Source of the DNA: Trypanosoma brucei
Lineage: Eukaryota
Assembly (NCBI GenBank): GCA_000002445.1
Contig: CM000207.1
Coordinates: forward strand, 2,272,001-2,336,000
Length of the DNA: 64,000 bases
Direction of reading: 5' to 3'
The notes below the pieces were generated by a model. That model made no database searches. It saw only the letters and a list, made by a program, of their open reading frames with translations, and was not told the origin of the DNA. The position numbers were made by a program, and so were the translations under genes. Positions 9,150-56,576 of the stretch are shown piece by piece. Numbering within the stretch: the first letter of the stretch is position 1; every line of letters starts with the position of its first letter.

Positions 9150-11762
9150 TTCCGTGTAAATGCGCTACGGAAGTCTGCGTAGAAACCATGTTTATCGTTT
9201 TTGTCGGCCTGCGAAATTTGCTCTTTTTCTTTATTTTTTGAGCATTTTTCTTTTCCAACCGCCCCTATTTTTCTTATGACCTCTTTGTCGCAGTAACCGT
9301 TGTTACTCATGCATTGGGCTGGTCGAGCCCTTTCAAATGCGCTACGAAAGTCTGCGTAGCGACAATTTTTTGTGGTCGTCATGTCGATTTGACCACGGTT
9401 AATTTTTTCAAAATTTCCATTTTTTGAAAAAATATTAGGTTCGACAGCACCTAATTTTTTTGTGACCTCTTTGTCGCAGTAACCGTTGTTACTCATGCAT
9501 TGGGCTGGTCGAGCCCTTTCAAATGCGCTACGGAAGTCTGCGTAGCGACAATTTTTTGTGGTCGTCATGTCGATTTGACCACGGTTAATTTTTTCAAAAT
9601 TTCCATTTTTTGAAAAAATATTAGGTTCGACAGCACCTAATTTTTTTGTGACCTCTTTGTCGCAGTAACCGTTGTTACTCATGCATTGGGCTGGTCGAGC
9701 CCTTTCAAATGCGCTACGGAAGTCTTCGTAGCGACAATTTTTTGTGGTCGTCATGTCGTTTTGACCACGGTTAATTTTTTCAAAATTTCCATTTTTTGAA
9801 AAAATATTAGGTTCGACTGCACCTAATTTTTTTGTGACCTCTTTGTCGCAATAACCGTTGTTACTCATGCATTGGGCTGGTCGAGCCCTTTCAAATGCGC
9901 TACGGAAGTCTTCGTAGCGACAATTTTTTGTGGTCGTCATGTCGTTTTGACCACGGTTAATTTTTTCAAAATTTCCATTTTTTGAAAAAATATTAGGTTC
10001 GACAGCACCTAATTTTTTTGTGACCTCTTTGTCGCAATAACCGTTGTTACTCATGCATTGGGCTGGTCGAGCCCTTTCAAATGCGCTACGGAAGTCTGCG
10101 TAGCGACAATTTTTTGTGGTCGTCATGTCGTTTTGACCACGGTTAATTTTTTCAAAATTTCCATTTTTTGAAAAACTTTTAGGTTCGGCAGCACCTAATT
10201 TTTTTTGTGACCTCTTTGTCGCAATAACCGTTGTTACTCATGCATTGGGCTGGTCGAGCCCTTTCAAATGCGCTACGGAAGTCTGCGTAGCGACAATTTT
10301 TTGTGGTCGTCATGTCGATTTGACCACGGTTAATTTTTTCAAAATTTCCATTTTTTGAAAAAATATTAGGTTCGACAGCACCTAATTTTTTTGTGACCTC
10401 TTTGTCGCAGTAACCGTTGTTACTCATGCATTGGGCTGGTCGAGCCCTTTCAAATGCGCTACGGAAGTCTTCGTAGCGACAATTTTTTGTGGTCGTCATG
10501 TCGTTTTGACCACGGTTAATTTTTTCAAAATTTCCATTTTTTGAAAAAATATTAGGTTCGACTGCACCTAATTTTTTTGTGACCTCTTTGTCGCAATAAC
10601 CGTTGTTACTCATGCATTGGGCTGGTCGAGCCCTTTCAAATGCGCTACGGAAGTCTTCGTAGCGACAATTTTTTGTGGTCGTCATGTCGTTTTGACCACG
10701 GTTAATTTTTTCAAAATTTCCATTTTTTGAAAAAATATTAGGTTCGACAGCACCTAATTTTTTTGTGACCTCTTTGTCGCAGTAACCGTTGTTACTCATG
10801 CATTGGGCTGGTCGAGCCCTTTCAAATGCGCTACGGAAGTCTTCGTAGCGACAATTTTTTGTGGTCGTCATGTCGTTTTGACCACGGTTAATTTTTTCAA
10901 AATTTCCATTTTTTGAAAAAATATTAGGTTCGACTGCACCTAATTTTTTGGCGACCTCTTTGTCGCAATAACCGTTGTTACTCATGCATTGGGCTGGTCG
11001 AGCCCTTTCAAATGCGCTACGGAAGTCTGCGTAGCGACAATTTTTTGTGGTCGTCATGTCGATTTGACCACGGTTAATTTTTTCAAAATTTCCATTTTTT
11101 GAAAAAATATTAGGTTCGACAGCACCTAATTTTTTTGTGACCTCTTTGTCGCAGTAACCGTTGTTACTCATGCATTGGGCTGGTCGAGCCCTTTCAAATG
11201 CGCTACGAAAGTCTGCGTAGCGACAATTTTTTGTGGTCGTCATGTCGATTTGACCACGGTTAATTTTTTCAAAATTTCCATTTTTTGAAAAAATATTAGG
11301 TTCGACAGCACCTAATTTTTTTGTGACCTCTTTGTCGCAGTAACCGTTGTTACTCATGCATTGGGCTGGTCGAGCCCTTTCAAATGCGCTACGGAAGTCT
11401 GCGTAGCGACAATTTTTTGTGGTCGTCATGTCGATTTGACCACGGTTAATTTTTTCAAAATTTCCATTTTTTGAAAAAATATTAGGTTCGACAGCACCTA
11501 ATTTTTTTGTGACCTCTTTGTCGCAGTAACCGTTGTTACTCATGCATTGGGCTGGTCGAGCCCTTTCAAATGCGCTACGGAAGTCTTCGTAGCGACAATT
11601 TTTTGTGGTCGTCATGTCGTTTTGACCACGGTTAATTTTTTCAAAATTTCCATTTTTTGAAAAAATATTAGGTTCGACTGCACCTAATTTTTTGGCGACC
11701 TCTTTGTCGCAATAACCGTTGTTACTCATGCATTGGGCTGGTCGAGCCCTTTCAAATGCACT
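9150..11762 (-). repeat. The same 186-bp satellite, about 14 copies, inverted (- orientation). Together with the + block it forms a head-to-head, palindrome-like arrangement.
   Basis: The reverse complement of the unit is repeated with period 186. The minus-strand ORFs 8909..10126 and 10179..11729 translate to the same 62-aa periodic peptide as the + strand ORF. Confidence 0.9.
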
Positions 11763-12796
11763 ACTTGAATGTTTGTGACGAGTTTTTGCTTTCTACTTCA
11801 TTGATAAGGGGAAATTCTTCATTTTACCTTTTCTTGACATTTTTTTTTTTGCCTCTCAGCCCTTTTACCTCTTTACCCTTATTTTCTTGTAAATAACTGT
11901 TGGTACTATCGGAAATATTTGGCCGATTTTTTGCAAGAGCTATCACTAAATGTTTATGAAGGTATATGGGTACAAAGGCAAAAATACCAGAGTGTGGAAA
12001 ATATCATCATAGCAATACTAGGGGCAAGTATTCAAAATTCGATCACATCGGAAGCTTCAACCATTTCGGATGATCAGAGCACGTATTTCAACTTATTCAA
12101 CGAGATCTTTCCACTGTATATAACACCGATTCTTCAAAGAAAGTGTTTTTAAAGGCCACAGCGGGGGAAGGGCAAAAACAGGAAAATTATATGAAAAAAT
12201 GAAGGATCAAAAATGAGTTCAACGATATTCAAAAACCTAACCATTTCGACTGGTCAGATAGTGCTTTTCAAAGATCTCAATTGAATTATTTTTAAACACA
12301 ATATCTGACCGGTCGTAATGGTTAGGTTTTTGAATATCGTCGAACTCATTTTAATTTATACTTTGTGCCTTCCCCCCATTTTGTGGGTGACTTTCTTTTT
12401 CAGGTCCCCTCATCTTTTCTTCCACATGTTGAAAAGGATAACCATAGCGCAATATAGATATACATATCCAAGGCCAGTGAAATCCCCTTTCTTTGAATAC
12501 ACCATCATTTATTTCTTTAAAGGCTAACGTTTAATTTATTTTCTTCTGGCGCTGAATATAATTTTTTTCTTCTCCATTTTTTAGTCTCTTTTTTCTGAGG
12601 TGGCCAGCCTTACCTTTTTTAGCTTCGACCAGTGGAGAATGGTTCGAACCGCCAGATGTGTTTCTCCTAATTCAAAATTATCTCGTTTCCGTAAAGTCGT
12701 TACACGCAATATCAATCGTCAAGGCAGATTAAAAAAACTGTTCTAATAGTATCTTATCACTTATTTTCATTGGTTTTTCTGTTTCCATATATTATT

Positions 12797-14176
12797 TTAG
12801 AGCCTTCTGGCTTTCTCCATTGCCTCTGCCGCACTGTAAACGTGAACATTCCCGCGGAGGACGGCTGCCACCACATCCGCAGTTATCCCGTCGAATGCGG
12901 TGGTTACCGTAAGTCGGTGGTCCTGGCCCCGGAGGACGCGGCGAAGCCAGTCACGACTTTTGCCGAAAATAGCACCGTTTGTAAGCATAACAAATGGTGC
13001 GAAGGCCAGTCCATTTTGTATCGCCCAGTAGCTGTACTTGCGCTCCTTTTCCTGGAAGCGCACCAATGCGGCTTTCATTGGATCTGCCGCAGCTACTGAG
13101 CGCTGACCTTGGGCGGTGTTTCCGACGGTCACGCGCCCTGGATACGTCACCGTGATGTCCGTCACCGCGTACGTATCCAACCCCGCAATGAGGATGTCCG
13201 GCCTCCTCTTGCTCACCTCATTTAGGCGTGGTTCCGTCGCGCACTGGAACCCACAGAGGCGAAGGCCGTTTGCGAACACGCTGTTAATGATGTCGTGTCG
13301 CATCTGCCTGGGTTTATTGTGCACTTTGGTGCACGTGTGGATGTGGTGATTGCTCGCGTCTTCACCACATAGGCATTTGACCCCCTCCGGTAGTACCCTC
13401 ACAAGTAAACGTTCCCGCAGGTACACTCCGAAAGTGGCGTCGTCCAGCCTCACCTGAGCATCCGTGAGGGGCCTGCCAGCTCCGGCGGCGGTATTGGCTG
13501 TAAAGACTTGACGATCAGCACCCCCAAGGGTGGCGTAGAGGTCGTCTTGCTGTCTTTGGTCAGCCTCCTCCGTCTTCCTCTGCTGGAGACCTTTCTCTCC
13601 GGCGCACTGGTGGGCGTACTCTGCCACTTGGGCCATCCGCCTAATTCCACAGCCACCCATGCTCACGGGCAGCGCCGCTATATTCCGGGCCCTTTCGGTC
13701 ATGGGTTGCCCGAGAATATGCTCCATTACCTGGGTGGTCCTCTCATCGAACCAGGAAGCCACCCGGTGTGTGTGTTGCATATCGTGGTTCCGCAACAGGA
13801 ATGTGATCCTTGGCATTGCCGACATCGCCAGAATCCTCCATCGTGTCCTGTTGTAGAGGGGTAGCTCCACGATTGCCTTGAAGAGGCGGTCTGTTTCCAT
13901 CACCTTCTTCACCCCCTCCCGAATCTCCTCGCTCATTGGATCCGGGGCCACGTACGCTCCAAGAACTCGCGCACACGCCTTCACCGCTGTCCCAAAGCCT
14001 GTGTCCCCAGTCAGTTCGAGGACCTCGGTTTTGTCCGCATTGTTGACGATTCCGAGTTTCTCTATCTGTTGGGCTATCGTCTTGTAAGCATGTTGTAGCT
14101 TATCTGGTGTTGCTGGTACCATGATATCGAGTAGATACGCCGTAAAGTGCTTGTTGGATTCTTTGCTGCGAGTCAT
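12797..14176 (-). pseudogene. Reverse-transcriptase C-terminal fragment (motif C onward plus Cys/His domain) of the degenerate retroelement.
   Basis: It is a 459-aa ORF. The catalytic YADD is mutated to YLLD, and the ORF starts just upstream of motif C with no RT N-terminal half in frame. Confidence 0.5.
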
Positions 14177-33896: not shown

Positions 33897-34245
33897 CATA
33901 GCATGGGGGGGAGTGGATGTATAAATTAATAATCAAGTGGAAAAGTAAGAATATGGGAACATGTGTAGACAAAAGGATATTGCTTTATTGAAAACATCAA
34001 ATGTGTTGTAGTGAATCAATATACGTGCATACGAATAAACAGGACAGGAAGTATATGCTTGGAATGCTAAATCAAAAGTGAGACGGGTTAATCACTTAAG
34101 GATAGTAGTACACGTAGAATTAAAATAGGTATCGTACTTTTCCATCGGCAACAAAAATGCTCTCTTCTACACAATTCCTTCTTCCACAATAAACGCGCAC
34201 GCACAAAAAAAGGTGGGACCACAAAACCAGAACTTTCACGCAAAG

Positions 34246-35172
34246 ATGACATTCGTTAAGGTTGTGAAGAACAAGGCGTACTACAAGCGGTTCCAGGTGA
34301 AGTACCGCCGCCGCCGCGAGGGGAAGACGGATTACCACGCACGCCGCCGCATGGTGCTGCAGGACAAGACAAAGTTCGGGACCCCGAAGTACCGTTTGGT
34401 GGTGCGCATCACGAACCGCGACGTGATTGCCCAGATCGTCCACGCGAAGGTTGTTGGCGACGAGGTTGTAATGGCGGCTTACTCGCACGAACTGCCACTG
34501 TTCGGCATCGAGCACGGACTGACAAACTACGCTGCTGCCTATGCCACTGGATTGTTGGTTGCCCGCCGCATGCTGGCGAAACTCGGACTCGCGGAAAAGT
34601 TTGTCGGCGTGAAGGAAGTGGATGGTTCATACGCCGCTGTGCGCACGAAGGACGACGACCAGGGCGATGACGAGTCACGCTTCCCCTTCAAGGCGATCCT
34701 TGACGTGGGTCTGGCCCGCACAACAACTGGCGCTCGCGTGTTCGGTGTGTTGAAGGGTGCTGTGGATGGTGGCCTCGCCGTACCTCACCGCCCCAATCGG
34801 TTCCCCGGTTACAACAAGGAGAGTGATGCGCTCAACGCAAAGGTACACCGCGATCGTATCTTCGGCCGCCACGTTGCGGATTATCTGAAGCAGGTGCGTG
34901 AGGAGGCAAGCTCAAACCCCGACGAAAAGACTTGCCAGTTCTCCAAGTTTATCGCGGCAAAGGTTTCGCCCGACGACATGGAGGGCATGTACAAACGTGC
35001 GCACGCTGCCATCCGTGCTGACCCAACGAAGCGACGTGCCAAGAAGGAGCGCCCCGCTGAGGCGAAACCGAAGAAGTACAACACGGTGAAGCTAACTGGT
35101 GCCGAGAAGAAGGCCGCAGCGAAAGCAAAGGTTGCCGCTGTGATTGAGCGCATCCGTGACCGTGCGAAGTAA
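34246..35172 (+). CDS. RPL5: 60S ribosomal protein L5 (uL18), copy 1. The ORF track starts at 34213; the likely ATG is 34246 (MTFVKVVKNKAYYKRFQVKYRRRREGKTDYHARRR...).
   Basis: It has the canonical RPL5 N-terminus and a length of about 308 aa. Confidence 0.9.
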   Translation: MTFVKVVKNKAYYKRFQVKYRRRREGKTDYHARRRMVLQDKTKFGTPKYRLVVRITNRDVIAQIVHAKVVGDEVVMAAYSHELPLFGIEHGLTNYAAAYATGLLVARRMLAKLGLAEKFVGVKEVDGSYAAVRTKDDDQGDDESRFPFKAILDVGLARTTTGARVFGVLKGAVDGGLAVPHRPNRFPGYNKESDALNAKVHRDRIFGRHVADYLKQVREEASSNPDEKTCQFSKFIAAKVSPDDMEGMYKRAHAAIRADPTKRRAKKERPAEAKPKKYNTVKLTGAEKKAAAKAKVAAVIERIRDRAK

Positions 35173-35523
35173 GGTACTTGGCGCAACTTCCTGTCATGTG
35201 TTGCTCCAGGTGGAAGACACGCTCTGTAGTGAGCTAACCCGGGGCGGATCAGACGCGGTGCCGGCGTGACAATCCCACCTACTTTTTATTTTGATGGATA
35301 ATATTTTTTTCACCTTATTTGTCGGCTCTAACCCACACGGCTGCTGTAGTTTGTTTATGACAACGTGCCTTAGGATCCTTCCGGTACCTTGTACCTTTCC
35401 CTCGTACCTGAAATTGTTTCTCCGTCTTTCCCCCTGTTTTGGATCCATCTTCCTTTCACCTCGTTGACGTACTCACTCGTTAACGCACACATATATGAAT
35501 TCAGAAAGAGTCCCGAAACGAGG

Positions 35524-36450
35524 ATGACATTCGTTAAGGTTGTGAAGAACAAGGCGTACTACAAGCGGTTCCAGGTGAAGTACCGCCGCCGCCGCGAGGG
35601 GAAGACGGATTACCACGCACGCCGCCGCATGGTGCTGCAGGACAAGACAAAGTTCGGGACCCCGAAGTACCGTTTGGTGGTGCGCATCACGAACCGCGAC
35701 GTGATTGCCCAGATCGTCCACGCGAAGGTTGTTGGCGACGAGGTTGTAATGGCGGCTTACTCGCACGAACTGCCACTGTTCGGCATCGAGCACGGACTGA
35801 CAAACTACGCTGCTGCCTATGCCACTGGATTGTTGGTTGCCCGCCGCATGCTGGCGAAACTCGGACTCGCGGAAAAGTTTGTCGGCGTGAAGGAAGTGGA
35901 TGGTTCATACGCCGCTGTGCGCACGAAGGACGACGACCAGGGCGATGACGAGTCACGCTTCCCCTTCAAGGCGATCCTTGACGTGGGTCTGGCCCGCACA
36001 ACAACTGGCGCTCGCGTGTTCGGTGTGTTGAAGGGTGCTGTGGATGGTGGCCTCGCCGTACCTCACCGCCCCAATCGGTTCCCCGGTTACAACAAGGAGA
36101 GTGATGCGCTCAACGCAAAGGTACACCGCGATCGTATCTTCGGCCGCCACGTTGCGGATTATCTGAAGCAGGTGCGTGAGGAGGCAAGCTCAAACCCCGA
36201 CGAAAAGACTTGCCAGTTCTCCAAGTTTATCGCGGCAAAGGTTTCGCCCGACGACATGGAGGGCATGTACAAACGTGCGCATGCTGCCATCCGTGCTGAC
36301 CCAACGAAGCGACGTGCCAAGAAGGAGCGCCCCGCTGAGGCGAAACCGAAGAAGTACAACACGGTGAAGCTAACTGGTGCCGAGAAGAAGGCCGCAGCGA
36401 AAGCAAAGGTTGCCGCTGTGATTGAGCGCATCCGTGACCGTGCGAAGTAA
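35524..36450 (+). CDS. RPL5: 60S ribosomal protein L5 (uL18), copy 2, a tandem duplicate. The ORF track starts at 35389; the likely ATG is 35524.
   Basis: The protein is identical to copy 1. The coding sequence is near-identical: the only difference I confirmed is in codon 265, CAC versus CAT, and it is silent. The first 23 nt of the 3' flank are identical, then the flanks diverge. The 5' UTRs differ. Confidence 0.9.
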   Translation: MTFVKVVKNKAYYKRFQVKYRRRREGKTDYHARRRMVLQDKTKFGTPKYRLVVRITNRDVIAQIVHAKVVGDEVVMAAYSHELPLFGIEHGLTNYAAAYATGLLVARRMLAKLGLAEKFVGVKEVDGSYAAVRTKDDDQGDDESRFPFKAILDVGLARTTTGARVFGVLKGAVDGGLAVPHRPNRFPGYNKESDALNAKVHRDRIFGRHVADYLKQVREEASSNPDEKTCQFSKFIAAKVSPDDMEGMYKRAHAAIRADPTKRRAKKERPAEAKPKKYNTVKLTGAEKKAAAKAKVAAVIERIRDRAK

Positions 36451-40720: not shown

Positions 40721-41467
40721 ATGCTTGCTGCTACCCGAAGTTTGGGCGGGCTCTACAAGGTGCCTGGACGCAAATCCCTCGGTGAGATTTGCAAGCTCAG
40801 CCTGCTTGAGGCAACGCCAGAACCTCAGTTAGCCACAATATGGAATGAACACCACAAGCAGTTCGTCCAATACTGGGGCCGAACCATCTCGGCTGATGCG
40901 TACTACGCTCTGCAGCCGCGTCTTAAGCAGTCACCGTACTTTGTCATTCCGGTGTTCCGAACGAAGGGACTATTTAACGTGGTGACAAACTGGGACCGCG
41001 ATCTTGTTGGTGTCGCGCCACTTGCGGAGTGGCAAGAGAAGCAAGACAGCGCGCAGGTACACATGACAATTCAGTTCTTTACGGAACTGGCACGCACAAA
41101 ACGGATGGTGATGGTGCGGTGTGAGATTAAAGACAAGGTGTTTGTCCGCCAGGACTGCGTGTTTGTAACGCAGATGCTGCTGAAGTATTACTCCGATCCT
41201 CAACTATACGAGATGTGGGTGGAGGTGTTTAATAAGCGTCCAACCCAGTTTGATTATCACATGTACCTGCGGAACATGAAAGATGAAGCGAAGCGGGATG
41301 ATATACGCATCGAGGACAAGAAGGCGCAGGTGAGGATGGACGCCTACGGGCCGGTGATTGACACGCCGCCGGATGCCATCGCGCAGCAGATATTAAAAAG
41401 TGTTGATTCTGGCGCGCCACCACCAGGAGAGAGTCTTAACGGCTGCAATGGATATAGGAAAGAGTAG
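40721..41467 (+). CDS. ATP11: Mitochondrial ATP synthase F1 assembly factor ATP11-like.
   Basis: LATIWNEHHKQFVQYWGRTISADAYYALQPRLKQSPYFVIPVFRTKGLFNV fits the ATP11 family core (IW..YH.......a.ip...y..l..ra...P.FvlPlpR..Gyef). It also has an N-terminal presequence-like region. Confidence 0.6.
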   Translation: MLAATRSLGGLYKVPGRKSLGEICKLSLLEATPEPQLATIWNEHHKQFVQYWGRTISADAYYALQPRLKQSPYFVIPVFRTKGLFNVVTNWDRDLVGVAPLAEWQEKQDSAQVHMTIQFFTELARTKRMVMVRCEIKDKVFVRQDCVFVTQMLLKYYSDPQLYEMWVEVFNKRPTQFDYHMYLRNMKDEAKRDDIRIEDKKAQVRMDAYGPVIDTPPDAIAQQILKSVDSGAPPPGESLNGCNGYRKE

Positions 41468-43822: not shown

Positions 43823-45538
43823 ATGTTGCTCACCTACTTTTTGTTTTGTTTGTTTGTTTGTTCGTGTCAACCGTTGTTTCCTCGTATCAGCACGGCAACA
43901 GAGAGAATGGTTCGGTTTCAGCCATGGAGCATGGCCGTGCAAACTCGCTTTAAGTGGCGGCACAAGGAGACGGACCGCTGGCGGCGACTAATGGACGCGA
44001 CTTGTGTTCCCCTAGACTGGATCGGACAGACTCGGGGCCCATCCTTCACACAATACAGCGGGCACTGGACACATCTACTCACCTGCGCGCATGTCATCAC
44101 GCCATGGGACTATCCAAATTTTTATCCCCCGAAAGGCCCGACGCGGTTTGTGTCCCGCATAACCCTCGCTGACACCATGACACAGGTTCGCCTTGTTTCA
44201 CTGCAAGGTAACGCGGTTTACAAGCACTTCACTTCAAATCAACACGTGTTTGTGCACTCCAACCCACGACTTGATCTCTGCGTCTTACACCCCGAGCAGA
44301 ATCTGCGGCGCAGTGGAGAGATGAAGATGTTGTGGATGCAAAATGAAGGGCATGTTACGCGACCCCGCCTGGAGCTTGTAAAACCGCTGGAGGTGGGGGA
44401 TCATGTTTGGGTATATGGCATGACGGCCCATGAATCCCTTTTTGATGAGGAAGGAGGACCGGAACCCCTCATGATCCCAACGGGAATCCGAGCTCGCGTG
44501 CATGCCTTGACACGGGAACATTTCTTTATCGACACAAAGTCTATTGAAGGTGCTGAACGAGGGTGTGTGGGTATGGGAATGTGCGGCTCTGCTGTGATGC
44601 GTAATGGACGTTGTGTTGGGATGTTAACGGCAACTGTACATGAGGAAAGTGACTGTAAGGAGCTTGCTGGCACTGCCATGTGTACCTACGCCTCAGACAT
44701 CTTTGAGTTTCTACTGGAGGTAGAGCGACAGATGAAGGCATTACCCCCAAGTCTAAACCGCCAGGAGACCATGTTTCAGCAGCGTCGCCGCGGCGAGGGA
44801 TCGGAGGAATATGAGAAACAGCGTGAGACAGAAGGCAAGGAATGGGATTTGGACCATACGAGGCTGGCACGCCACATACCCGTACCCGTATCGCTGTGGC
44901 ATATGGAAGAGAAATGGATAACAGAGGAAGATTACATGACAAACAAAGTGTTCGGTCGTGGAGGGCCATTTAACCAGGAAACTCAGGAAAATATTCTTGG
45001 ATACGACATGAACTCGTCTAAATCATACGGGGAGCGGCCCGGGGATATCGCCTCCGTGTCTACTGCAACGCAAGACGGTAAACCAACAATGCAAGGCGAG
45101 CGGAAGGATTACAGCCCAACTGGAATCTACGCCGATCACGAAGACTTCAAGACAAGTGATGTGTGGGACTACAACGTCAGCTCGGAATTGCGGTCGCTCT
45201 TTGACAAGGGCGTTGACGCCAAAGATGCCCACAGTCTCAATATGATGCGCAAGTCACTCGAGAATATCCGTGCACAGCGTGCAATGGAAAAAATGAAAGA
45301 AACAGTAATGAAAGCCCCAGGTCACAGTGAAGACCCCCTCAATGTGGGAAGCATGGGTCGGTACGACGTCAATATGGAAGAAAGCAGTGCCCAGGCGTTC
45401 ACTCCAGACATGGATGATGAGGTACGGGCCGCAGCGCGAAAGGAAGAAAAGTACCATGAGGAGCTGCGGCGGCGGCATGGCAACAAAGCGCGGCCATTTG
45501 GTGACGAAGATCTGAGAGGATTGTGGGAACCTCATTAA
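43823..45538 (+). CDS. Trypsin-fold (clan PA) peptidase-like protein. The likely ATG is 43907 (MVRFQPW...).
   Basis: Triad-like motifs appear in the canonical order: LLTCAHVITPW (His), RLDLCVLHP (Asp), GMGMCGSAVMRNGRCVGMLTA (the GDSGG-like nucleophile box, with Cys or Ser as nucleophile). Confidence 0.5.
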   Translation: MLLTYFLFCLFVCSCQPLFPRISTATERMVRFQPWSMAVQTRFKWRHKETDRWRRLMDATCVPLDWIGQTRGPSFTQYSGHWTHLLTCAHVITPWDYPNFYPPKGPTRFVSRITLADTMTQVRLVSLQGNAVYKHFTSNQHVFVHSNPRLDLCVLHPEQNLRRSGEMKMLWMQNEGHVTRPRLELVKPLEVGDHVWVYGMTAHESLFDEEGGPEPLMIPTGIRARVHALTREHFFIDTKSIEGAERGCVGMGMCGSAVMRNGRCVGMLTATVHEESDCKELAGTAMCTYASDIFEFLLEVERQMKALPPSLNRQETMFQQRRRGEGSEEYEKQRETEGKEWDLDHTRLARHIPVPVSLWHMEEKWITEEDYMTNKVFGRGGPFNQETQENILGYDMNSSKSYGERPGDIASVSTATQDGKPTMQGERKDYSPTGIYADHEDFKTSDVWDYNVSSELRSLFDKGVDAKDAHSLNMMRKSLENIRAQRAMEKMKETVMKAPGHSEDPLNVGSMGRYDVNMEESSAQAFTPDMDDEVRAAARKEEKYHEELRRRHGNKARPFGDEDLRGLWEPH

Positions 45539-46111: not shown

Positions 46112-49100
46112 GTGATGAATCCAAGTGCCCAGCCGTGGTATCCCCCGGCGGAGTTGGTGCTTGGCGCACCGACGGCTGGCTTAACGGCGGTGCGTTGGCA
46201 AAACGATCCGTACCGTTCACGAATAGCCAGGTGTCCGCCTCCGCCGCTTTGCGGTGACGATGATTTCATTTCGTTGCGAATCGAGTCCCTTGTGCCGGTG
46301 GCAGGGACCAAAACGGATTCACCGATTCCAGCTGCTTTGACAGCAGCAGCAGCGGCCGCAGTGTTGCCGACAGCGGTGCAGGTGCCCGTGACTAAAGGTC
46401 AACCATACCGCAGCAGCGGAGTCACTTTCGCAAGTGTACCCACGCAGGCGGAGGCACGCCTTCAGAAGCGATCACAACCAGTAAGTCGTTGCCAGGCAGA
46501 TCTAAAACCCTTGTGGCGCAGCTTCGCCACCGTGTCGTCTCTGGACTCTCAAGGCGATTCTCAAGAAATCGAAGGCGCCACAACAGAGGAAAAATGCTGC
46601 GCTGCACGTGTTCGGCCTGCAAGGCCCAAGGTGCCAATCCCGCGTCCTCGATCGCAGCTTAATGCGGACAACGCTTTTGCAGCCGCCCGCAACCTCAACA
46701 AAACGGTGTTGGCGGGTAGTTTAGATATCAACCCGCACACGCCAGCATCGACACCTAATGACTCGAGCCCCGACCAAACCTCCGAAACCCCTGCCGTCTC
46801 TGCGAGTGGGACAGACACCACAACTACCGACGGTGAAAATAATACATGCACGACCTCTTCTCCCACAGACGTTGGTGCATCAACAGGCCGCAACAACACT
46901 TGCTCGGAGGATGCCGAAGAGCCCAGCTGCGAAGTCATCAGCGTGAAGAGCACGGCCCAGGAAGCAGATGTTGACGAGAAGCCGCAATGTCTGGCGAACC
47001 GCGCGCCACCGGGCCCAACCGCATCCAAAAAGACACGATTGAAGCCAAAGTCTGAGAAGTGGACAATCGTCGGGGGTAAGGCAGGAGTGGCACTCGCTTC
47101 CGTGCAGGCGGCAGTAGTGCCAGCGAAGAGGCCAACTGCGTCGATTGCCAGCACGAAGGCACGTGAGAGCGTGTCGCGTCACCGTACTCCGGATCCAAAA
47201 GCAAAAGAGCGCGTTAGGTCCAAGCAGCGGCAGTCGCAAGCCCAGCATAGGGAGGAAGTCAACAAATGTAGCAGCAAAGATGATGTCATCATCGAGCAAA
47301 AGTCGAAACGACAGCGGGATTCGCGGCGCCCGCGTGAGTGCTGGACTGATGAGGAACTTCTTGAAACCCTAATGAGTAGCACCACAATCTCTGCTCAGAC
47401 GGGTGCATCCTCCAGTGGTAACAGTGGTGATGGTGCCGCGTCATTTGCCATTATGGGTGTCCCACTCGTTTGCGTTACACGAGGTGAGGAACTTCTCACG
47501 TCGCAGTCCTCGTCGCGGAGCGACGCGCGGCAGCGAAATGCACTTCGTTTGTTCATTCGTTCCCTCGCTATGTTTGAAACGTCCAACGCCAAGACACTGC
47601 TGCTGCAGCGTGCGCTAAATGGGCTGCCAGAGTCCTGCCATCACCAGTGCCCATCACTCGTTTGCGCTATCATGTTGGAAATGAGTGCAAGCTGTGTGGA
47701 TGTGGAAAAAAGCCTCCAAACGTGCTATAAGGCATTGAGGCTGTCGGAGAGGCACAATTTAGACACGTTTGAAATGTTGTCGCGACTCGGCATTACGCGC
47801 ACCCTTGCTCGGGTCGTTGACACAATGGATGCGCGGGAGAATTTAACACGAGCGGCACTGATTGCGATTGACCGCCTCGAAAAAGAGGCGCTCGGATGGA
47901 TTGTGATGCAAATGGGTGTCACGCTGGAGATATCAGGACTTTTCCCTGACTCACTTGCTTGGTATGAGGTTGCTGAGCGCCTTGCTCGGTCTACTGGGCA
48001 GCAGAGACTTCTTTGTGAAGTACACTGCTGTCAGAGCATCGCCTACTCGGCAGTAGGAGAGCTGGAGCGCGCACAGCAGGCTTACGAGGCTTCACGGTTA
48101 TTACTTTCCAACATTCATCGGCACTGCCATCAACGACCATTGCAGAACTATGCTCAACTGAAGTGTCAGCTCGGTGATATGGCGGGCGCGCTGCAGTTGC
48201 AGGAGGAGGAACTAGCTATCGCCAAGGAGCTGGGTGATACGCATGCCGCGTCGCGTTGTGTCGGCGCTATTGCATTAACAAAGCGGTTTCTTGGTCGCTA
48301 TGACGAAGCGGCAGAGAATTACATGGAGGAGTTTAGCGTGCATTGTTCCCGCGACCCGCGGCAGGCGGTGGAATCGCTTACCGGCGCGGCATCCTGCTGG
48401 CGATTTGGCGGTCACGCGCAGAAAGCGTATGATTACTGTATCCGAGCCCTCACTCAAGCCCGTGACTGTCATGACCTCACTACCATCGCCAAAGCGCTCG
48501 CAGAGTTGGCAGAGACGGAGCTAAGCATGGACAGACTAGATGAAGCACAAGAACATCTGCGCGAGGCTCTCACCGCAGTATTCCGCGTGGACGATGCAGA
48601 GCAGAAGCAGTATCTTGTGAAGGCCGCGCTTTGTGAAGTGGAGTGGCGTTGTTGCAGTGCATTGGGCCAAGTGTACGCGCGCCGTGGTCAAGCATTTGAG
48701 GCCATGCAGTGTGCTGACCGCTGTCACGTGCCGAACACGGTACACATGGGGCGATTGCTGTTGCGGCGTCAGCGGTGCGCTGGAGCCATACATGACGCCA
48801 CCAACCCTGAACTAGTCAGCAGGCAAAGTGTCGAACGGGTGCTCAAACATCCCACATTGAAAGGTTGGAATGTAGTCTGCTATTCACTTCCGTGGGCTGA
48901 GAAACTCGATTTTATGGTGTATGTGGTCATGCTGGACGCCGACAGCGGTGAGCTGAAGTGCGTGGCTCATCCGCTTGTCATGAGTGACGAGTTGGTGGCC
49001 TTTTTCTCTGGTCCTAATGCCTTGTGGGACTTATTGGATGCTCCCATGTTCACTGACACCGGGGACCGCATGTATGGCGATACACCGCTATGGCCGCAGC

Positions 49101-50251
49101 TGTACTCAAAGGTGGCATTTGACTTCCAGCAGAACCCAAGCAATGCGGAATGTCTTGTGTCGCTTCGTACGGATCCGCACTATTGCCTTCGTTTACTTTA
49201 TGACAATTTTGTGCGGCCACTGGAAGCGGACGTTGCCGGAGCAGAAGGGCTGATGTTTGTCGCTGACGGCGTCTTCAGCCGAATTCCGTTTCATGCCCTT
49301 CACGATGGGAAGAAGTACCTCGCAGAGCGCTTTTGCACGAGCACTTGCTGCTCCATGGCGCTACTCTGCACGCACGCCGTGGAGGATGAAAGCATAAAAG
49401 CCGCAGTGACTCCACCTGCAAAAGCAACAGATGGTGGCAGCGAGGAATCCATGGGGGGGATGATTCCCAAACGTTACACCATAGTTGATGATGCCTCTCA
49501 TAAGGTGGTGTTAATGGATTCCTTTGTTGAGGAGATGGTGGCTAAAAGCAATGACAGTTCTAATCCTGTTGGAGTGTGCGTCCGTCACTGGGTGGTTGAT
49601 GAAAAGCAACCTGTGATTTCTTGCGTGGCGAACGAGCAGCAACTCATCGATGCGGCGTCATCAAGTGACAACTCCAAAGATGGAAACGGCGATATCAGTG
49701 CGGAGGCGGCGGGAAATGATGATCCCGACGTGTCTGCCACAAAGCACCTGCTGTCGTGCTTGCGGCGCCGTGGCAATGTCACTTCAGTACGTAACTCCCT
49801 CTACCGAGCCGTGCATGAGAACCCCGAGGGCGTGTTGGAGTTGCGCCTTCGTGTCGTGCCGGAGGTTAAGGAGGATTATTGCGGAACTTTTGTTGGTGCC
49901 TCATGCGATGTCTCCGCCAGCCACGCCAGTGAAGTGGCCAGCTCATGGGAGTTGCGAGGTTACGCACTTGTTTTATGTAGTGGCATCGGGACCTACGGAG
50001 GATTATCCATGCATGAGACGGGAGTGCCGGTGTATCGAGCACTTCAGTATGCGGGAGCTCGCTGCATGTTGTTGGCAGCTGGCAGTCGAGTGCCGCCATA
50101 TGTTAAAGTTCCCGCTGCTGCTGCAGATGCGGCGCTGAATGGGCGGAGTGTTGCCGCAGCGCTGCGTGAGGCATATGTTCGAGCGATTGCGGCGGATGTA
50201 CCGTTGGAGGATTGGTGCGGGTTTGCGCTGGTGGGCCTGCCGATCTCGTGA
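46112..50251 (+). CDS. Large (about 1379 aa) TPR-repeat protein with a C-terminal CHAT (caspase-fold, HetF-associated with TPRs) domain.
   Basis: The central region contains TPR-like helical repeats (AYDYCIRALTQARDCHDLTTIAKALAELAE...LDEAQEHLREAL). The C-terminus reads LMFVADGVFSRIPFHALHDGKKYLAERF...SASHASEVASSWELRGYALVLCSGIGTYGGLSMHETGVPVYRALQYAGARCMLLAAGSRVPP...ALREAYV. This matches the CHAT pattern (L.h.PdG.L..lPFeAL....yL...........HfatHg......L........LVvLSAC.T........G..gL.rAfl.AGa..v.asLW.v.D). Confidence 0.55.
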   Translation: MMNPSAQPWYPPAELVLGAPTAGLTAVRWQNDPYRSRIARCPPPPLCGDDDFISLRIESLVPVAGTKTDSPIPAALTAAAAAAVLPTAVQVPVTKGQPYRSSGVTFASVPTQAEARLQKRSQPVSRCQADLKPLWRSFATVSSLDSQGDSQEIEGATTEEKCCAARVRPARPKVPIPRPRSQLNADNAFAAARNLNKTVLAGSLDINPHTPASTPNDSSPDQTSETPAVSASGTDTTTTDGENNTCTTSSPTDVGASTGRNNTCSEDAEEPSCEVISVKSTAQEADVDEKPQCLANRAPPGPTASKKTRLKPKSEKWTIVGGKAGVALASVQAAVVPAKRPTASIASTKARESVSRHRTPDPKAKERVRSKQRQSQAQHREEVNKCSSKDDVIIEQKSKRQRDSRRPRECWTDEELLETLMSSTTISAQTGASSSGNSGDGAASFAIMGVPLVCVTRGEELLTSQSSSRSDARQRNALRLFIRSLAMFETSNAKTLLLQRALNGLPESCHHQCPSLVCAIMLEMSASCVDVEKSLQTCYKALRLSERHNLDTFEMLSRLGITRTLARVVDTMDARENLTRAALIAIDRLEKEALGWIVMQMGVTLEISGLFPDSLAWYEVAERLARSTGQQRLLCEVHCCQSIAYSAVGELERAQQAYEASRLLLSNIHRHCHQRPLQNYAQLKCQLGDMAGALQLQEEELAIAKELGDTHAASRCVGAIALTKRFLGRYDEAAENYMEEFSVHCSRDPRQAVESLTGAASCWRFGGHAQKAYDYCIRALTQARDCHDLTTIAKALAELAETELSMDRLDEAQEHLREALTAVFRVDDAEQKQYLVKAALCEVEWRCCSALGQVYARRGQAFEAMQCADRCHVPNTVHMGRLLLRRQRCAGAIHDATNPELVSRQSVERVLKHPTLKGWNVVCYSLPWAEKLDFMVYVVMLDADSGELKCVAHPLVMSDELVAFFSGPNALWDLLDAPMFTDTGDRMYGDTPLWPQLYSKVAFDFQQNPSNAECLVSLRTDPHYCLRLLYDNFVRPLEADVAGAEGLMFVADGVFSRIPFHALHDGKKYLAERFCTSTCCSMALLCTHAVEDESIKAAVTPPAKATDGGSEESMGGMIPKRYTIVDDASHKVVLMDSFVEEMVAKSNDSSNPVGVCVRHWVVDEKQPVISCVANEQQLIDAASSSDNSKDGNGDISAEAAGNDDPDVSATKHLLSCLRRRGNVTSVRNSLYRAVHENPEGVLELRLRVVPEVKEDYCGTFVGASCDVSASHASEVASSWELRGYALVLCSGIGTYGGLSMHETGVPVYRALQYAGARCMLLAAGSRVPPYVKVPAAAADAALNGRSVAAALREAYVRAIAADVPLEDWCGFALVGLPIS

Positions 50252-50299: not shown

Positions 50300-53200
50300 A
50301 AATTATGCCGATTGTCTTCCATGTGGTGAACCAATCCCTGAAAGGAAGATGTAGAAGGAAAGAAAAAGAAAAAATAAAATAAAAGGAATGCGCACGGTGT
50401 ATATATGAGTATGTGTATGAATATGCTTTTATTCTTATTTATTTATCATCATCTTTTTTTTTACTGTTATTATTTTATATTTCTCTGCTACGTTCTTTTT
50501 TTTTTGTTATTGTTATCATTCCTACCATTATTATTATTATTATTACCATTATCACTATTACGATTAATACGTTTTTTTTTGTTTTCTTTAGGAAATTTGT
50601 TACGTCAGTCCATTTGTTTACTTAATTTTTTCCTTATTTTTTTTCTTTCCTTCATTCTGAAAGAGAAAAAAAAGGAGAGAAACGATGATTTTTCTTTTTC
50701 GATATGCTTGTTTTTTATTTTATTTTATTTTTCCTCCGAGATTTGTGGACATCAGCGTTATTAACTCACCATGTAGTTAAGGAAAGTAAAGTTAGGTATT
50801 TAAGGGAAATGAATGAGTGATGCATGAAGAAGTTATTTTTAAAATAAAAAGATATATATATATATATATATATAAACAAAATTTAAAAAAAAAAGATGAC
50901 GGAAAAGGCATATGCGTATGTGAAAGTGTATCGGTATTGGTATTGGTGGTTTGGGAAAAAATAATGAGTGGTGAAAACAACGGCAACATTTGAAAATAAA
51001 ATGAACAAAAACTGAGGTATATATATATATATTTATTTATTTAGCCGTCTGTATGTGTGTGTGTGTGTCTGCGTGTGTTTTTATTTATTTATTTATTACC
51101 TTAAATTTTATTCATTTTTTTCTCTTTCTTTATTTCTTTCTCACCGTCTCCACCATTTTCCTCAGCATATGTTTTTCTGATGTTATTTTTGTGTATTTTT
51201 GATTGCTTTGTTTTACCATCTCTTTTTTCTTTTCTTTTCCTTTTTTCCTTTTTTTGGTTTTTTTGTTTTTTATGTTTCGTTTTTTTTTTAATATTATTTT
51301 ATATTATAAGTTTTGTTAATCAACTTTTATCGAACAGTGTCGATGAGTCGGTAAGAGTTGATTGAGGTGTGCAGGTAGTCCCTCCCCCCTCCAAAAAAAA
51401 AAATTTTTAATTCGAAACACACGCCACCGCACGGAACGGAAAAGTGAATAATAAAAAAAAAAGGAAAAAAGGAAAAGAAAAGAAAAGGAAAACATATTAA
51501 TCAATGAAACAAAAAAAAGGGGGAAATAATAATAGTAACGATGATAGTAAAATAATAAGAATAACACATATATGTTTGTAGTTGTATGAATGGATGTGTA
51601 ATGAGCGGTTACAATACGGACATCAATGAAACAAACAAACAAACAAGAAGGAAAGAGGGAGAAATTAATGTACACATGTGTGTGAGCATATGTTAATGGA
51701 AAGAACAGGAAGGCACAACTGTGAAACTCAAAGTATGAAAAGCAAAAAAAAAAAAAGAAAAAATTGCGGCTACCGAATGATTCATATAATTTCTTTTCTT
51801 TCTCTTCTTTTTATTGTTGATGACGTAAAAAGCGTACATATGTTTTCCTGTTTCTACCACTGAAAAATGCAACACACGAACACACACGCACATGTATAAA
51901 AACATATTGGATTTATTGCTTATTCACTTTATTTATTTAGTAATTTATATGGAAGGAAACATAACTTCGGGAGTTTGATAGTGAAGAGGAGAAGGAAGGA
52001 GAAACAATTCGTGATGATTTATTTATTATTTTTTTTACAAAATAAAAGCGGTTATTAATTCTTTTTTCCCCTTTTCCTTTCTTTCTTTCTTTATTTTTTT
52101 TTCCTTTCCTTTCGTCGTTGTTGCTGTTTCCTTTTTTCATTTTTCCCAAAACTTCCTCCCCGACTATTCTTACGCGAATACAAAAATGCAAACATCTTTA
52201 TTTTATTTTTAATGTTTTTTTTTCCTTTTCTTTACGTCGTCATTATTATCATTATTATTATTACACATGCACACACATGTTCATTTCCGTTGTTTTTGCC
52301 GTTTGTTTGTTTATTTATTTGTCGTTTTATTTTTATTTTTGCTCTCGCGTTTGTGATTTTGTTTTGTTTGTTTGCCTTTATTTTGATATTATTACTTTAT
52401 ATATATTTATATATTTATATATATATATATATTATCATATATGAAAATATATGTGTTTTACTTCCGTCGCTGCTGCAGAGGTCCATTTTGTTTCTCTCAC
52501 AACTGTATATTTAAATTAAATAAATATATATATATATATAAATATATGTAAATATATAAATAAATATAAATATATATATATATATTTCCAATGAAATGTA
52601 AGAAGGGAAAGGGAGGAGGAGGAGGAGGGGGGAAGGGGGAAAGGGGAGAAAAAATAGAGAGAAATTATAAAAAAGAGTTTAAAAAACCAAATAAATCAAA
52701 TCAAATCAAATTAAATCAAATCAATAAATAATTAAACGTGTGGGCACAAGTATGTATGAAATAAAATACAATGAACCGATTTGGTATGATTTTATTTGAA
52801 CTGAAGGTGCAACACAGAGGAAGAATTATAAAGTTTTCGGAGGGGAAAAAAAAAATAGAAATAAAAGGAAAGAAAGAAATGCACACATATACATGCATGC
52901 GCATATGCCCTCGAACGAAACAGGGAAAAAAAAATCGAAAGTGTAAATGAAAATTAAAATGACAGTTGTGACGAACTGATCATATGAATGAAAGCACGCG
53001 TATTTTTTTTCCCCCCTTTTCTTTTCTGATGTGCGTGTTTTTGTGTGCATAATTTTTTTGTTTGTTTATTTTTGTTTTATTTGTTGCCTTATGTTACGCA
53101 GGAAAGAATGAAAGGAAAATAATATAGTTATAAAATAAATAATGAAATGAAATGAAATGAAGTGAAGTGACACAATATGATACTATGAAATTATGTGGGA

Positions 53201-53880
53201 GAAAAATAAAAAAAAGTATATATGAAAGATGAGGGAATCGATATTTTGAATCGTGTGCACAAAAAAAAACGCAAGACAAACAGGTAATAGTAACAGTAAT
53301 AATAACTTAAGTACCTGCATGCATACATATATTTATATATAATTTGTATGAATATATATATATAATATGTATTTGTGTATGCGTGTGTTCTAACGGTGTA
53401 AGCTGTGCGGTCAAAAAGATATGACAAAGAAAACAAAAGAAGATTTTTTTTTAAAAAAAAAGAAAGCAATGCAATATAAAAGCAGAAAGAGCCACTGATA
53501 CTCTTCTGTACATGTGGGCGGCTGAAGGTACACTCCGTTCCTATTTTCCTCTTCTTAAAATGTTGTATTTTTATTATATTTGTGTTAACATTTGCTTGTG
53601 TCCACGCTGGTGTTGCTGTTGATTCTTTCCCTTTCCCTTTTTCTTATTTCTTTTTTTTTCTTTCTAATTTTGAACCTTGTGTCCGTCACTTCTTTACATC
53701 AACCCTTCGAAATATGAGAACAACGTAAGCGAAGGCAAGTGAAGAAAGGAGTAAGTGGAAGTGGAAGTGGAAGTGGGCAAAAGGGAGGAAATAAGCGCAG
53801 GCACAAAAGCACCAAAAGAAGAAAACAAATAAACAAAAAAAAAGAAAGGTGTTAAAACACTTGTCACTCACCTTCCACAA
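50300..53880. repeat. An AT-rich, low-complexity intergenic region of about 3.6 kb, packed with heterogeneous microsatellites: poly-T/poly-A, (TA)n, (TTTA)n, (GT)n, (ATTATT)n, AAATCAAATCAAATCA, (GAAGTG)n, (GGAGGA)n.
   Basis: This can be read directly from the sequence. No ORF longer than 120 aa is present. Both flanking genes are on the + strand. Confidence 0.8.
53620..53700 (+). promoter_or_regulatory. Polypyrimidine tract upstream of the Utp6-like gene. It is the presumptive trans-splicing and polyadenylation-coupling signal.
   Basis: CTTTCCCTTTCCCTTTTTCTTATTTCTTTTTTTTTCTTTCT lies about 200 nt upstream of the ATG at 53883. Kinetoplastid SL addition uses such tracts. Confidence 0.45.
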
Positions 53881-53882
53881 CA

Positions 53883-56576
53883 ATGGCGCGAGCAACTGCT
53901 ATTGAGACACGGTTGGAGAAGCTCCTCCCCGCAATGGAGGAGTACTTCACCAGTGGTTTCCTCACACGCGAAGAAACTCACGAGGTGGCGCGGCAGCGGT
54001 CGCATTGGGAATATCGCCTCGTGGCAAAACCGTTACTTCTGCTGGACGTGCGAAGTGCAGCCCGCTACGAGTTGGAGTTGGAGGAGCGGCTCCGTCAGTA
54101 TTGTGTCGCAACAAAACTTGTGCTCCGCCACCGCTGGTCCATAATTGAACGTGTGGAGTACATTTATCGAATTGGCCTGCGCCACATAAAAGATCCCGAT
54201 GAATGGGAACTCCTAAGACGAGAGTACGTGTCGGTTCTCAAAAAACACCGCAGACATGGTCAGTTGTCTGCGTTATATGGCGAATTGATGGTACGTTTCC
54301 CAACCCGTAGCGCGCTGTGGGTGGAAGCTGCCCTATACGAAGGTGTGGAGGCGGAAAACGCAAGCAACGCACGGGCTCTCGTGCAACAAGCGGTGCTGAC
54401 ATCTGGCGCACAGCCCGAAGTGTGGAATGCAGCTGTTGTGGTGGAATTATACTTTACAGACCGGCTTCTAAAGAAACTTCTCGAGGATAAAGAAGAGGAA
54501 AAGGGAAAAGAGCATCAACAGAAGCAGAAGCAGCAGGTAGGGGACGAGGGAGGAGGGCATGACATCGTGACGGAGCTCAAGTTGGAAAATGCTGCACTCG
54601 CTGAAGTTGTGGTGGATTTAGCGCTTGTCCACGCCGTTGTGGAGGAGGCACTGGACAGTCCCGCTTTTGGTCCAAAGCTTGTCCGTATGCTGGTAGATAG
54701 TGTGACACGGTTCTGTTACACTAAACCCGTGTTAGAACGCCTCATGGAACTTGCCGCCAAAAAGATGGTCGCCATATTGAGCCCCGTCATGGCTAATAGC
54801 ATCGGTAACAGTAGTAGTGCTCAACTCAATGCATCGTCGTCGGGTACGGCTCGGCAGTGGACGGAGGTGGGCATCTCTCATTTCTTGGAAGATTACTTAG
54901 CACTCGAGGCCATTATGGCCGAAAAAGGAGTTGCGGGTGATGCGGCTTCTCTGCTGCGATCCAATGGCCGCACGCCGAGTGTGGGTCGAGAAGATTGGAA
55001 GGTGTCATGCATCGCCTCTCTCGTCTCCTCGCTGACGCTTCTCTACACTGATGAAGTGAGGTTTCCCATCGTCTCGCGTTTGCATTCCGGTGCCGTTTCT
55101 GTAGTGGAAAACTTAATGGAACGTCTGCAGCAACTTGGTTGCGCTGATGCGGTTTCTGCCGCTTGTCGGTGCCTCCTCCTGTCAACTCAGCAGCGGCAGC
55201 ACAAGGGGAAGAAGTCAGAAGCCGATGCTCGCGAAGAGAGTATAGCTCTCATTAATGAGGTGTTGAGCTGCTTATGGAAGGAAGTGAAGGGCTCAAAGAA
55301 GAAGCAAAAGAATCAAACGCATGACGCGGCAGTGGAACGGGTAGTAGCGATGCTAACGGGTGGTGCAGCCAAAGATGCCGTTCCTTCGGCAAAGAAGGCC
55401 ATGAAACGACCGCGACCTGAAGACCCCGCACACGTGTGGCGGCCGCTTTCTCGCTTTTTACTTCCGGAAGATCGCGCAGCGGTCCGCAGTGCGAGTGACG
55501 GAGTAATGCAGCACTGTACTAGCGCCGAGGTCGATCTTCTCTTTAGCCTCCATGACAGGGATAACGAGACGGATGCCGAGGTCGTTGGTCACGCCGTTGT
55601 GGAGTTCCTGCAGAGGTTTGAACTTATCCCCCCCACTGCCGGAGTGAAGGATGTGCGGCAGCTGAGTTTTACTGAGGGCCGAACCCCCATCGTTCTGTGG
55701 AAGATGTTTCTTCTTCTAGAGAGGTGCTGTGCTCAAGCAATTGTGGATTCGTTGCCGCGACGGTCAAAACCGCAGTCCTCCACAACACGAGGCAGTACAG
55801 GTGATAGTGACAGTGATAGTGATAGTGACAAGAAGGACAGGCTGCAGCAGGACAAAGACAGCGCCACCATGGATGTTAGTTTCGCGGCCGCTGGTTTGAG
55901 GTTTCTCGCTGGTGTGCCGTGCGGTGTGTTGCCAAGTATTGCCGTTGAAGAAGAGCGACTGAAGGGTTGTTGGACGCTGGTCACTGCTCGCGTTCACACT
56001 TTGACCGGACTGGAGTCTACCACGCGCGACAATTTTGTTTCCCGTCTTCGTCATCCCCCAACGGATGGCGCTGTCGCTAGTGATAACCAACCTGCTTGGG
56101 TGAATGGGCTGAGATCCATTCTTAGTGTATCCCGTCTTTGTCATCCTCTTCCTCGTCAGGTCTATGCCGACATCGCTGTTCCCTTCTTCGAGGCTCTTGC
56201 CTTATGGGCCCAAAAACAACAAAAGCCCCATAGCGACGTTAACGCCGCCGTGCAGGAGGCGCGGGATGCTCACACGTGCGTATTAGCGATGTACACGCAG
56301 TCTCGTAACCTCGCAAATTACATGCCATTGGTGTACCGTCTGCATCCACCAAACCGTAACAGCAACAACAACAGTGATGAAGATGATGGGTCCCGTGGCA
56401 GTACGGTTAGCAGTCGAGTTTCGGCAACGGAGCTCAACGCAGCTGACTGGGCTCGGTGTATTGCATTTGAACGAGATGTGGCGAAGGACTTACGGCGAGC
56501 GAAGGAGGTGTCGGGACGGGCGCGAAGGGAGACACTGGCGCCACAACATCTACTTCTCATGTTGAATAAATACTAA
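53883..56576 (+). CDS. UTP6: U3 snoRNP / SSU-processome protein Utp6-like (HAT-repeat protein). The C-terminal region is unusually long.
   Basis: The N-terminus MARATAIETRLEKLLPAMEEYFTSGFLTREETHEVARQRSHWEYRL parallels Utp6 (MAE.VQQRLE..LPELE.LE.KG.F.R.EI..I.K.R..FEYRL). ALWVEAALYE is HAT-repeat-like. There is an SD-dipeptide run (DSDSDSDSD) at about 55800. Confidence 0.6.
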   Translation: MARATAIETRLEKLLPAMEEYFTSGFLTREETHEVARQRSHWEYRLVAKPLLLLDVRSAARYELELEERLRQYCVATKLVLRHRWSIIERVEYIYRIGLRHIKDPDEWELLRREYVSVLKKHRRHGQLSALYGELMVRFPTRSALWVEAALYEGVEAENASNARALVQQAVLTSGAQPEVWNAAVVVELYFTDRLLKKLLEDKEEEKGKEHQQKQKQQVGDEGGGHDIVTELKLENAALAEVVVDLALVHAVVEEALDSPAFGPKLVRMLVDSVTRFCYTKPVLERLMELAAKKMVAILSPVMANSIGNSSSAQLNASSSGTARQWTEVGISHFLEDYLALEAIMAEKGVAGDAASLLRSNGRTPSVGREDWKVSCIASLVSSLTLLYTDEVRFPIVSRLHSGAVSVVENLMERLQQLGCADAVSAACRCLLLSTQQRQHKGKKSEADAREESIALINEVLSCLWKEVKGSKKKQKNQTHDAAVERVVAMLTGGAAKDAVPSAKKAMKRPRPEDPAHVWRPLSRFLLPEDRAAVRSASDGVMQHCTSAEVDLLFSLHDRDNETDAEVVGHAVVEFLQRFELIPPTAGVKDVRQLSFTEGRTPIVLWKMFLLLERCCAQAIVDSLPRRSKPQSSTTRGSTGDSDSDSDSDKKDRLQQDKDSATMDVSFAAAGLRFLAGVPCGVLPSIAVEEERLKGCWTLVTARVHTLTGLESTTRDNFVSRLRHPPTDGAVASDNQPAWVNGLRSILSVSRLCHPLPRQVYADIAVPFFEALALWAQKQQKPHSDVNAAVQEARDAHTCVLAMYTQSRNLANYMPLVYRLHPPNRNSNNNSDEDDGSRGSTVSSRVSATELNAADWARCIAFERDVAKDLRRAKEVSGRARRETLAPQHLLLMLNKY

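Follow-up and report, generated by a model that had tools for sequence, protein, structure and literature searches.

The window analysed here comprises 64,000 nucleotides of Trypanosoma brucei DNA (GenBank assembly GCA_000002445.1, contig CM000207.1, positions 2,272,001 to 2,336,000 of the forward strand), and all coordinates below refer to it. The gene Tb927.9.15270 in this window (protein Q38CY1; coding sequence 43907..45538, + strand, 543 amino acids (aa) and a stop codon) probably encodes a mitochondrial clan PA protease with a cysteine nucleophile and the triad His62-Asp123-Cys226. The enzyme would most likely process mitochondrial proteins, possibly ones related to complex I, or control their quality. 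Clan PA cysteine proteases are already known from viruses; a cellular and mitochondrial version would be new. Q38CY1 is currently annotated as "hypothetical protein, conserved". A main-text literature search gave no mention of Tb927.9.15270, Tb927.9.15280, Tb09.244.2670 or Q38CY1, and in the searchable literature no paper recognising the fold of the protein was found.

The fold was predicted with AlphaFold2 on the basis of 32 homologues. Residues 1-280 (43907..44746, +) were modelled confidently as a double beta-barrel of the chymotrypsin/HtrA type with a conserved N-terminal strand pair. The predicted local distance difference test (pLDDT) was mostly 80-95 per block in this domain, and 87-93 around His62, Asp123 and Cys226. 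When the model was compared with the PDB by Foldseek, the top 50 matches were almost entirely HtrA1, DegP and DegS (best E 2.9e-9, template modelling score 0.72 for the target). An earlier sequence-only reading of this DNA had proposed a trypsin-fold protein and named a PA-clan structural match as its test; these are such matches. The confident domain together with the HtrA1, DegP and DegS matches therefore makes the assignment of the modelled protein to clan PA secure, and within the clan its fold comes closest to HtrA. At the level of sequence, no NCBIfam model matched, nor did any PDB entry with the single sequence as query.

The motifs LLTCAHV, DLCVLHP and GMGMCGSAV, which the sequence-only reading had listed in the order His-Asp-nucleophile, are present exactly as quoted, and this order and a G-x-Nuc-G oxyanion box are those of clan PA. 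The His box LLTCAHV (residues 57-63; 44075..44095, +) aligns with the TNsHVV box of DegP-type proteases and contains His62 (44090-44092). Directly 3' of it lies the family signature ITPWDYPNFYPP (44096..44131, +), an insertion relative to HtrA. It aligns with P~~~P~~YP of the wider family described below, and its residues P66, W67, P70, Y73 and P74 are invariant among kinetoplastids. The Asp box DLCVLHP (residues 123-129; 44273..44293, +), aligned with rDlAVlH of the wider family, starts with Asp123 (44273-44275). The nucleophile box GMGMCGSAV (residues 222-230; 44570..44596, +) holds Cys226 (TGC, 44582-44584), the predicted oxyanion-hole residues Gly224 and Gly227, and Ser228 (44588-44590), which is predicted to be non-catalytic. 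It is followed by the strand GRCVGMLTA (44606..44632, +), the counterpart of HtrA G-x-V-I-G-I-N-T-A. This strand aligns with HtrA gevIGI, and G234, G238, M239 and T241 in it are invariant among kinetoplastids.

The identity of the nucleophile was examined by aligning 260 family sequences to the family hidden Markov model (HMM) and counting residues in the sequences that cover each position. Column 62 was His in 235 of 235 sequences and column 123 Asp in 242 of 244. Column 226 was Cys in 243 sequences and Ser in 5, with no other residue among the 248 that cover it. The flanking glycines were nearly as constant (column 224, 239/248) or fully so (column 227, 248/248). Column 228 varied, with Gly in 173, Ser in 55, Ala in 18 and Cys in 2. 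All five natural Ser variants fell at column 226, including a diplonemid-like long form with the box GISGAP; at the position of a nucleophile, an exchange of Cys and Ser is the only one to be expected.

The same pattern was seen in the 32 orthologues, down to 40% identity, where H62, D123, G224, C226 and G227 were invariant where covered and position 228 was S, A or G. The sequence-only reading had asked which of Cys or Ser is invariant among orthologues; it is Cys226. In the kinetoplastid profile, GMCGS aligns with the SpoIVB box GM(S->A)GAP and places Cys on the catalytic Ser. In the wider-family profile, vhivTsaHVv and GmCGGPV align with fyvvTNsHVV and GNSGGPL of HtrA/DegP-type proteases. 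On this conservation, on the SpoIVB and HtrA alignments and on the Ser variants at exactly column 226, the GDSGG register is right, and Cys226, not Ser228, is the predicted nucleophile position. The possible Cys in place of Ser noted from the letters is thus borne out by its alignment with the catalytic Ser of SpoIVB and HtrA/DegP.

The finding extends from one T. brucei gene to an undescribed protist family. A protease-domain profile was searched against 1.84 billion representative proteins, and 130 of them matched at E<1e-3, nearly all with a G-x-C-G-G box. Apart from one evident bacterial false positive, the matches share a His box followed by a P-[WF]-x-[YF]-P-x-[YF]-Y-P insertion, an R-D-L-A-V-L-H Asp box and a G-[MLV]-C-G-G-P box. 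The kinetoplastid long form and the short forms, compared by hhalign, aligned over 237 columns with the three catalytic columns in register (probability 99.9%, E 5.6e-34). Trypsin_2 was matched at E<=0.1 by 27 of the 38 short forms, three of which (P0074, P0076, P0078) exceeded its gathering threshold with 36.6-39.1 bits, and a weak Peptidase_C3 match was found in only one. These profile matches tie the family to Pfam Trypsin_2 rather than to viral 3C; no Pfam model is dedicated to it.

Named members came from the diplonemids Namystynia and Diplonema (long forms of 750-1700 aa), the prokinetoplastid Papus, the heterolobosean Willaertia, the chrysophytes/synurophytes Mallomonas and Chromulina and a single-cell chrysophyte genome, the diatom Thalassionema, and the glaucophyte Cyanophora. 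Among named taxa the family looks old, patchy and confined to protists, and the wider group with the G-[MLV]-C-G-G box is probably ancient. The Tb927.9.15270 protein is its Euglenozoa-specific long form, shared by kinetoplastids and diplonemids, in which the protease domain carries a long, charged and mostly disordered tail. Long and short forms also differ at the S1-wall position: the long forms have Thr, which is likewise found in the HtrA "NTA" motif, and most short forms have Glu. Speculatively, this hints at different specificities.

Kinetoplastids have a second paralogue of ~270-300 aa, for example XP_067060303.1 of Leishmania orientalis with the box S-M-C-G-G. Among the sequences of this second paralogue (P0198, P0194-P0196, P0171, P0122, P0132), some have S-M-C-G-G and others G-M-S-G-A or G-T-S-G-A; Cys and Ser therefore alternate within the subgroup.

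Published proteomic data place the protein in the mitochondrion. In the tables of Peikert 2017, Tb927.9.15270 is flagged in the reference sets Mitochondrial Proteome (Panigrahi 2009 / Mach 2013) and Respiratome (Acestor 2011). In the same study, knock-down of the import pore ATOM40 by RNA interference (RNAi) lowered its abundance to 0.50 (p 0.028) and 0.49 (p 0.019), with 4-7 peptides. Table S1 of Zikova et al. 2017 lists it under oxidative phosphorylation (OxPhos) "complex I", and it occurs in the procyclic, not the bloodstream-form, datasets. Presequence-like N-termini are common among family members. They are of the MLRR type in the Leishmania, bodonid-like and diplonemid orthologues, and Cyanophora also has a presequence-like N-terminus. 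The gene or a trypsin-like protein is not mentioned in the Trenaman 2019 supplements or in the diplonemid mitoproteome paper and its supplements, nor is a protease-like subunit in the paper on Euglena complex I/IV composition. A role in the Euglenozoa-specific cleavage of F1-ATPase subunit alpha was considered and set aside, as a 2026 study places this cleavage in the cytosol before import.

The C-terminal extension (residues 281-543; 44747..45535, +) is charged and, by pLDDT, largely disordered. Its share of D/E/K/R is 34.6%, versus 21.8% in residues 1-280, which agrees with the long acidic and basic extension described from the letters. Beyond about residue 380 the model is largely disordered (pLDDT <50 at 381-437, 469-502 and 525-543), and two long helices are predicted at 438-469 and 503-524. 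Four islands of the tail are conserved, all on the + strand: ARHIPVPVSLWHMEEKW (44867-44917, residues 321-337), FNQETQEN (44969-44992, residues 355-362), GERKDYSPTGIY (45095-45130, residues 397-408) and LRGLWEPH (45512-45535, the C-terminal LWxxH). Neither PDZ (at E<=10) nor any other Pfam domain was found in the tail.

In the mechanism that we infer, the protein would be imported into the mitochondrion, where His62, oriented by Asp123, would activate Cys226 for attack on the scissile bond, as in 3C/TEV proteases. The oxyanion hole would be formed by the backbone of G224-x-C-G227. Substrates would be mitochondrial and may be related to complex I, and processing or quality control of such proteins is the most likely role. 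The charged tail may replace the PDZ domains that gate HtrA, and its conserved islands probably dock partners or regulate access.

Several points weigh against this reading. Activity is predicted by computation throughout. The Pfam Trypsin_2 match (PF13365) of the protein itself reached 13.6 bits (E 0.12) versus a gathering threshold of 27.6, although it spanned profile positions 11-144 of 144. The juxtaposition of His62, Asp123 and Cys226 at the barrel interface is predicted from homology to DegS/HtrA and from the pLDDT of 87-93. Tb927.9.15270 lies outside the formally defined ATOM40-dependent importome (Peikert 2017). With the single sequence and with profiles, no PDB sequence match was found in a solved trypanosome mitoribosome, assembly intermediate, ATP synthase or respiratory complex, nor in any deposited respiratory complex of Euglenozoa. 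As no homologue was found in any solved structure, the link to complex I remains a proteomic association, and its listing rests on affinity purifications.

Protease-fold proteins can also persist as non-catalytic subunits. The main alternative is accordingly a pseudoprotease that hydrolyses no peptide bonds and whose fold serves as a scaffold; the protein could, for instance, belong to complex I as an accessory subunit or act in its assembly. We consider this unlikely. Inactive paralogues normally lose triad residues, whereas essentially all of the ~250 sequences, from several eukaryotic supergroups, retain His, Asp, Cys/Ser and the two oxyanion glycines, and the sole substitution at the nucleophile is the exchange of Cys and Ser, which preserves catalysis.

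This last observation also bears on a role of Cys226 in redox sensing or in binding a metal or cofactor. Such a role would suit a mitochondrial, possibly respiratory chain-associated protein that has other conserved cysteines (C33, C60, C236 and C259). It is very unlikely, however, since the box around Cys226 is that of a canonical oxyanion hole, since His and Asp are conserved, and since the replacement of this Cys by Ser only, among natural variants, fits a nucleophile and not metal or redox chemistry.

Still harder to sustain is the idea that an RNA-virus gene for a 3C-like cysteine protease was captured and endogenised. The G-x-C-G-G box does resemble that of picornain 3C, and the weak Peptidase_C3 match in one member covers the box (E 0.07) and nothing else. 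Against a viral structure library, however, the best matches were giant-virus and sobemo-like serine proteases, with picorna-like polyproteins only at E~1e-4. The Trypsin_2 matches of the short forms also speak against capture, as do the broad and vertical distribution of the family in protists and its mitochondrial-type N-termini.

The shifted register, in which Ser228 of CGSAV would make this an ordinary HtrA-type serine protease, has next to no chance of being right and was rejected: T. brucei does read C-G-S and the fold is indeed nearer to HtrA than to viral 3C, the part of that proposal which stands, but position 228 is Ala or Gly in kinetoplastid orthologues and mostly Gly across the family, and in all profile alignments it is Cys226 that falls on the catalytic Ser. 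A mitochondrial clan PA protease that uses Cys226 is kept as the preferred reading.

The assignment of the gene rests on sequence identity and context. The 543-aa product is 100% identical to RHW66947.1 of T. b. equiperdum, a hypothetical protein. Its 90% cluster contains T. b. brucei TREU927 XP_827669.1 / Q38CY1 and a T. b. gambiense entry. Supplementary tables of Peikert et al. 2017 equate Q38CY1 with Tb927.9.15270, formerly Tb09.244.2670. The neighbouring genes fit this assignment, namely two RPL5 genes, an ATP11 homologue, the UBX protein Tb927.9.15260, Tb927.9.15290 with tetratricopeptide repeats (TPR) and a CHAT domain, and UTP6.

The open reading frame (ORF) spans 43823..45538 (+), and the start at 43907 is its second in-frame ATG. 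Annotated protein lengths conflict over the start region (43823-43931), with 571 aa in gambiense, 543 in equiperdum and 535 in TREU927. At their N-termini, other Trypanosoma orthologues read MVRFQP or MARFHP; conservation of RFQP extends across the family. The 28 codons 5' of 43907 are not conserved in other species and lie within a pyrimidine tract. This pyrimidine-rich stretch is followed by AG dinucleotides, the first at 43889-43890, and the whole (43830..43906, +) reads as a probable trans-splice acceptor region, with 43907 as the first ATG of the mature mRNA. Because of the orthologue starts, the conserved RFQP and the upstream pyrimidine tract ending in AG, the start at 43907 is favoured.

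The next gene downstream, Tb927.9.15290 (46112-50251, +), encodes 1379 aa with TPR repeats and a CHAT domain. CHAT is a caspase-like protease fold, and two unusual protease-fold genes therefore adjoin here; gene adjacency in trypanosomatid polycistrons has little functional meaning. Two genes upstream of Tb927.9.15270 lies the ATP11 (F1-ATPase assembly factor) homologue (40721-41467, +; Pfam ATP11, E 4e-22), another mitochondrial biogenesis gene of the same array. Tandem duplicates of ribosomal protein L5 occupy 34213-35172 and 35389-36450 (+; Ribosomal_L5e and L18_c, E about 1e-75 each). Between the CHAT and UTP6 genes, a long AT-rich intergenic stretch (50300-53900) has a GC content of 0.31-0.33, versus ~0.50 around it, and contains TA/ATAT microsatellites and T-rich short repeats. 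ORFs of at least 200 aa flip from the - to the + strand between ~14.2 and 17.3 kb (8909-14176 (-) versus 17319 onward (+)). The GC skew changes sign at ~14 kb, and together with the ORF flip this fits polycistronic units that diverge from a strand-switch region.

For trypanosomatids, the gene and its shorter paralogue show that PA-fold enzymes exist but had been overlooked. A review of the Leishmania degradome (PMC2244715) states that no trypsin/chymotrypsin-type peptidase is encoded and that the ecotin-like inhibitors (ISPs) therefore target host enzymes. The family and its short paralogue weaken this premise, though these proteins are mitochondrial and use Cys. No relative was named from animals, fungi or land plants, an impression from the namable matches, to which no dedicated search was added. 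If this absence is true, the protein would be a candidate for a target specific to the parasite and would add a new component to protist mitochondrial proteostasis. The family also lends itself naturally to the question of why the PA fold can have Cys instead of Ser.

Among known proteases, HtrA/DegS/DegP (MEROPS S1C; Trypsin_2) are the best structural match. They share with the family the motifs T-x-x-H-V, D-[LI]-A-[VL]-[LI], G-x-Nuc-G-G-P and G-x-[VI]-G-[IM]-x-T-A, and HtrA2/Omi is likewise mitochondrial. They differ in their Ser nucleophile within G-N-S-G-G, where 243 of 248 family sequences, including that of T. brucei, have Cys, and in their C-terminal PDZ domains, in place of which the Tb927.9.15270 protein has its disordered charged tail. 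Compared with what we take to be the DegS spacing, there are insertions of ~30 residues between His and Asp, including the PW-YP-YYP signature, and of ~25 between Asp and the nucleophile. In sequence the family resembles HtrA only marginally, with E 7e-4 at best for the family profile. SpoIVB (MEROPS S55) was the only PDB sequence match of the kinetoplastid profile, its G-M-S-G-[AS]-P aligning with G-M-C-G-S; it is, however, a bacterial sporulation serine protease with a PDZ domain, and the similarity covers ~28 residues only (E 0.06).

The viral 3C, 3C-like and NIa (TEV) proteases of clan PA(C) (C3, C4, C24, C30, C37 and others) have in common with the family the PA fold, the Cys within a G-x-C-G-G box and the order of the triad, His-Asp/Glu-Cys. 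Viral 3C is part of a polyprotein, whereas Tb927.9.15270 is a cellular, nuclear-encoded, stand-alone gene, and the family has no specific affinity to 3C in sequence or structure. The S1-wall His of 3C (G-x-H), at the position we assume for it, corresponds to the Thr of the long form or the Glu of most short forms.

According to a 2019 structural survey, all nine cysteine families of clan PA are proteases of positive-strand RNA (+RNA) viruses, which agrees with the remark of the sequence-only reading that a Cys nucleophile would be unusual in a cellular protein. By this classification, a conserved cellular cysteine family would be the first non-viral one in the clan. The same survey found the viral PA proteases to be structurally closest to cellular HtrA. 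The family is therefore most readily understood as a branch, bearing Cys, of the cellular Trypsin_2/HtrA-like stock rather than as a captured 3C gene. It is thereby relevant to the proposal that viral 3C proteases originated from HtrA. It is a long shot that the protist mitochondrial G-x-C-G-G family represents the cellular lineage from or alongside which the cysteine PA proteases of picorna-like viruses arose. An equally bold corollary is that the switch from Ser to Cys would predate viral capture and have taken place in the mitochondrion of early eukaryotes, in a protease like HtrA. Were this so, the family would provide a concrete living intermediate for the long-standing proposal that viral 3C proteases descend from HtrA.

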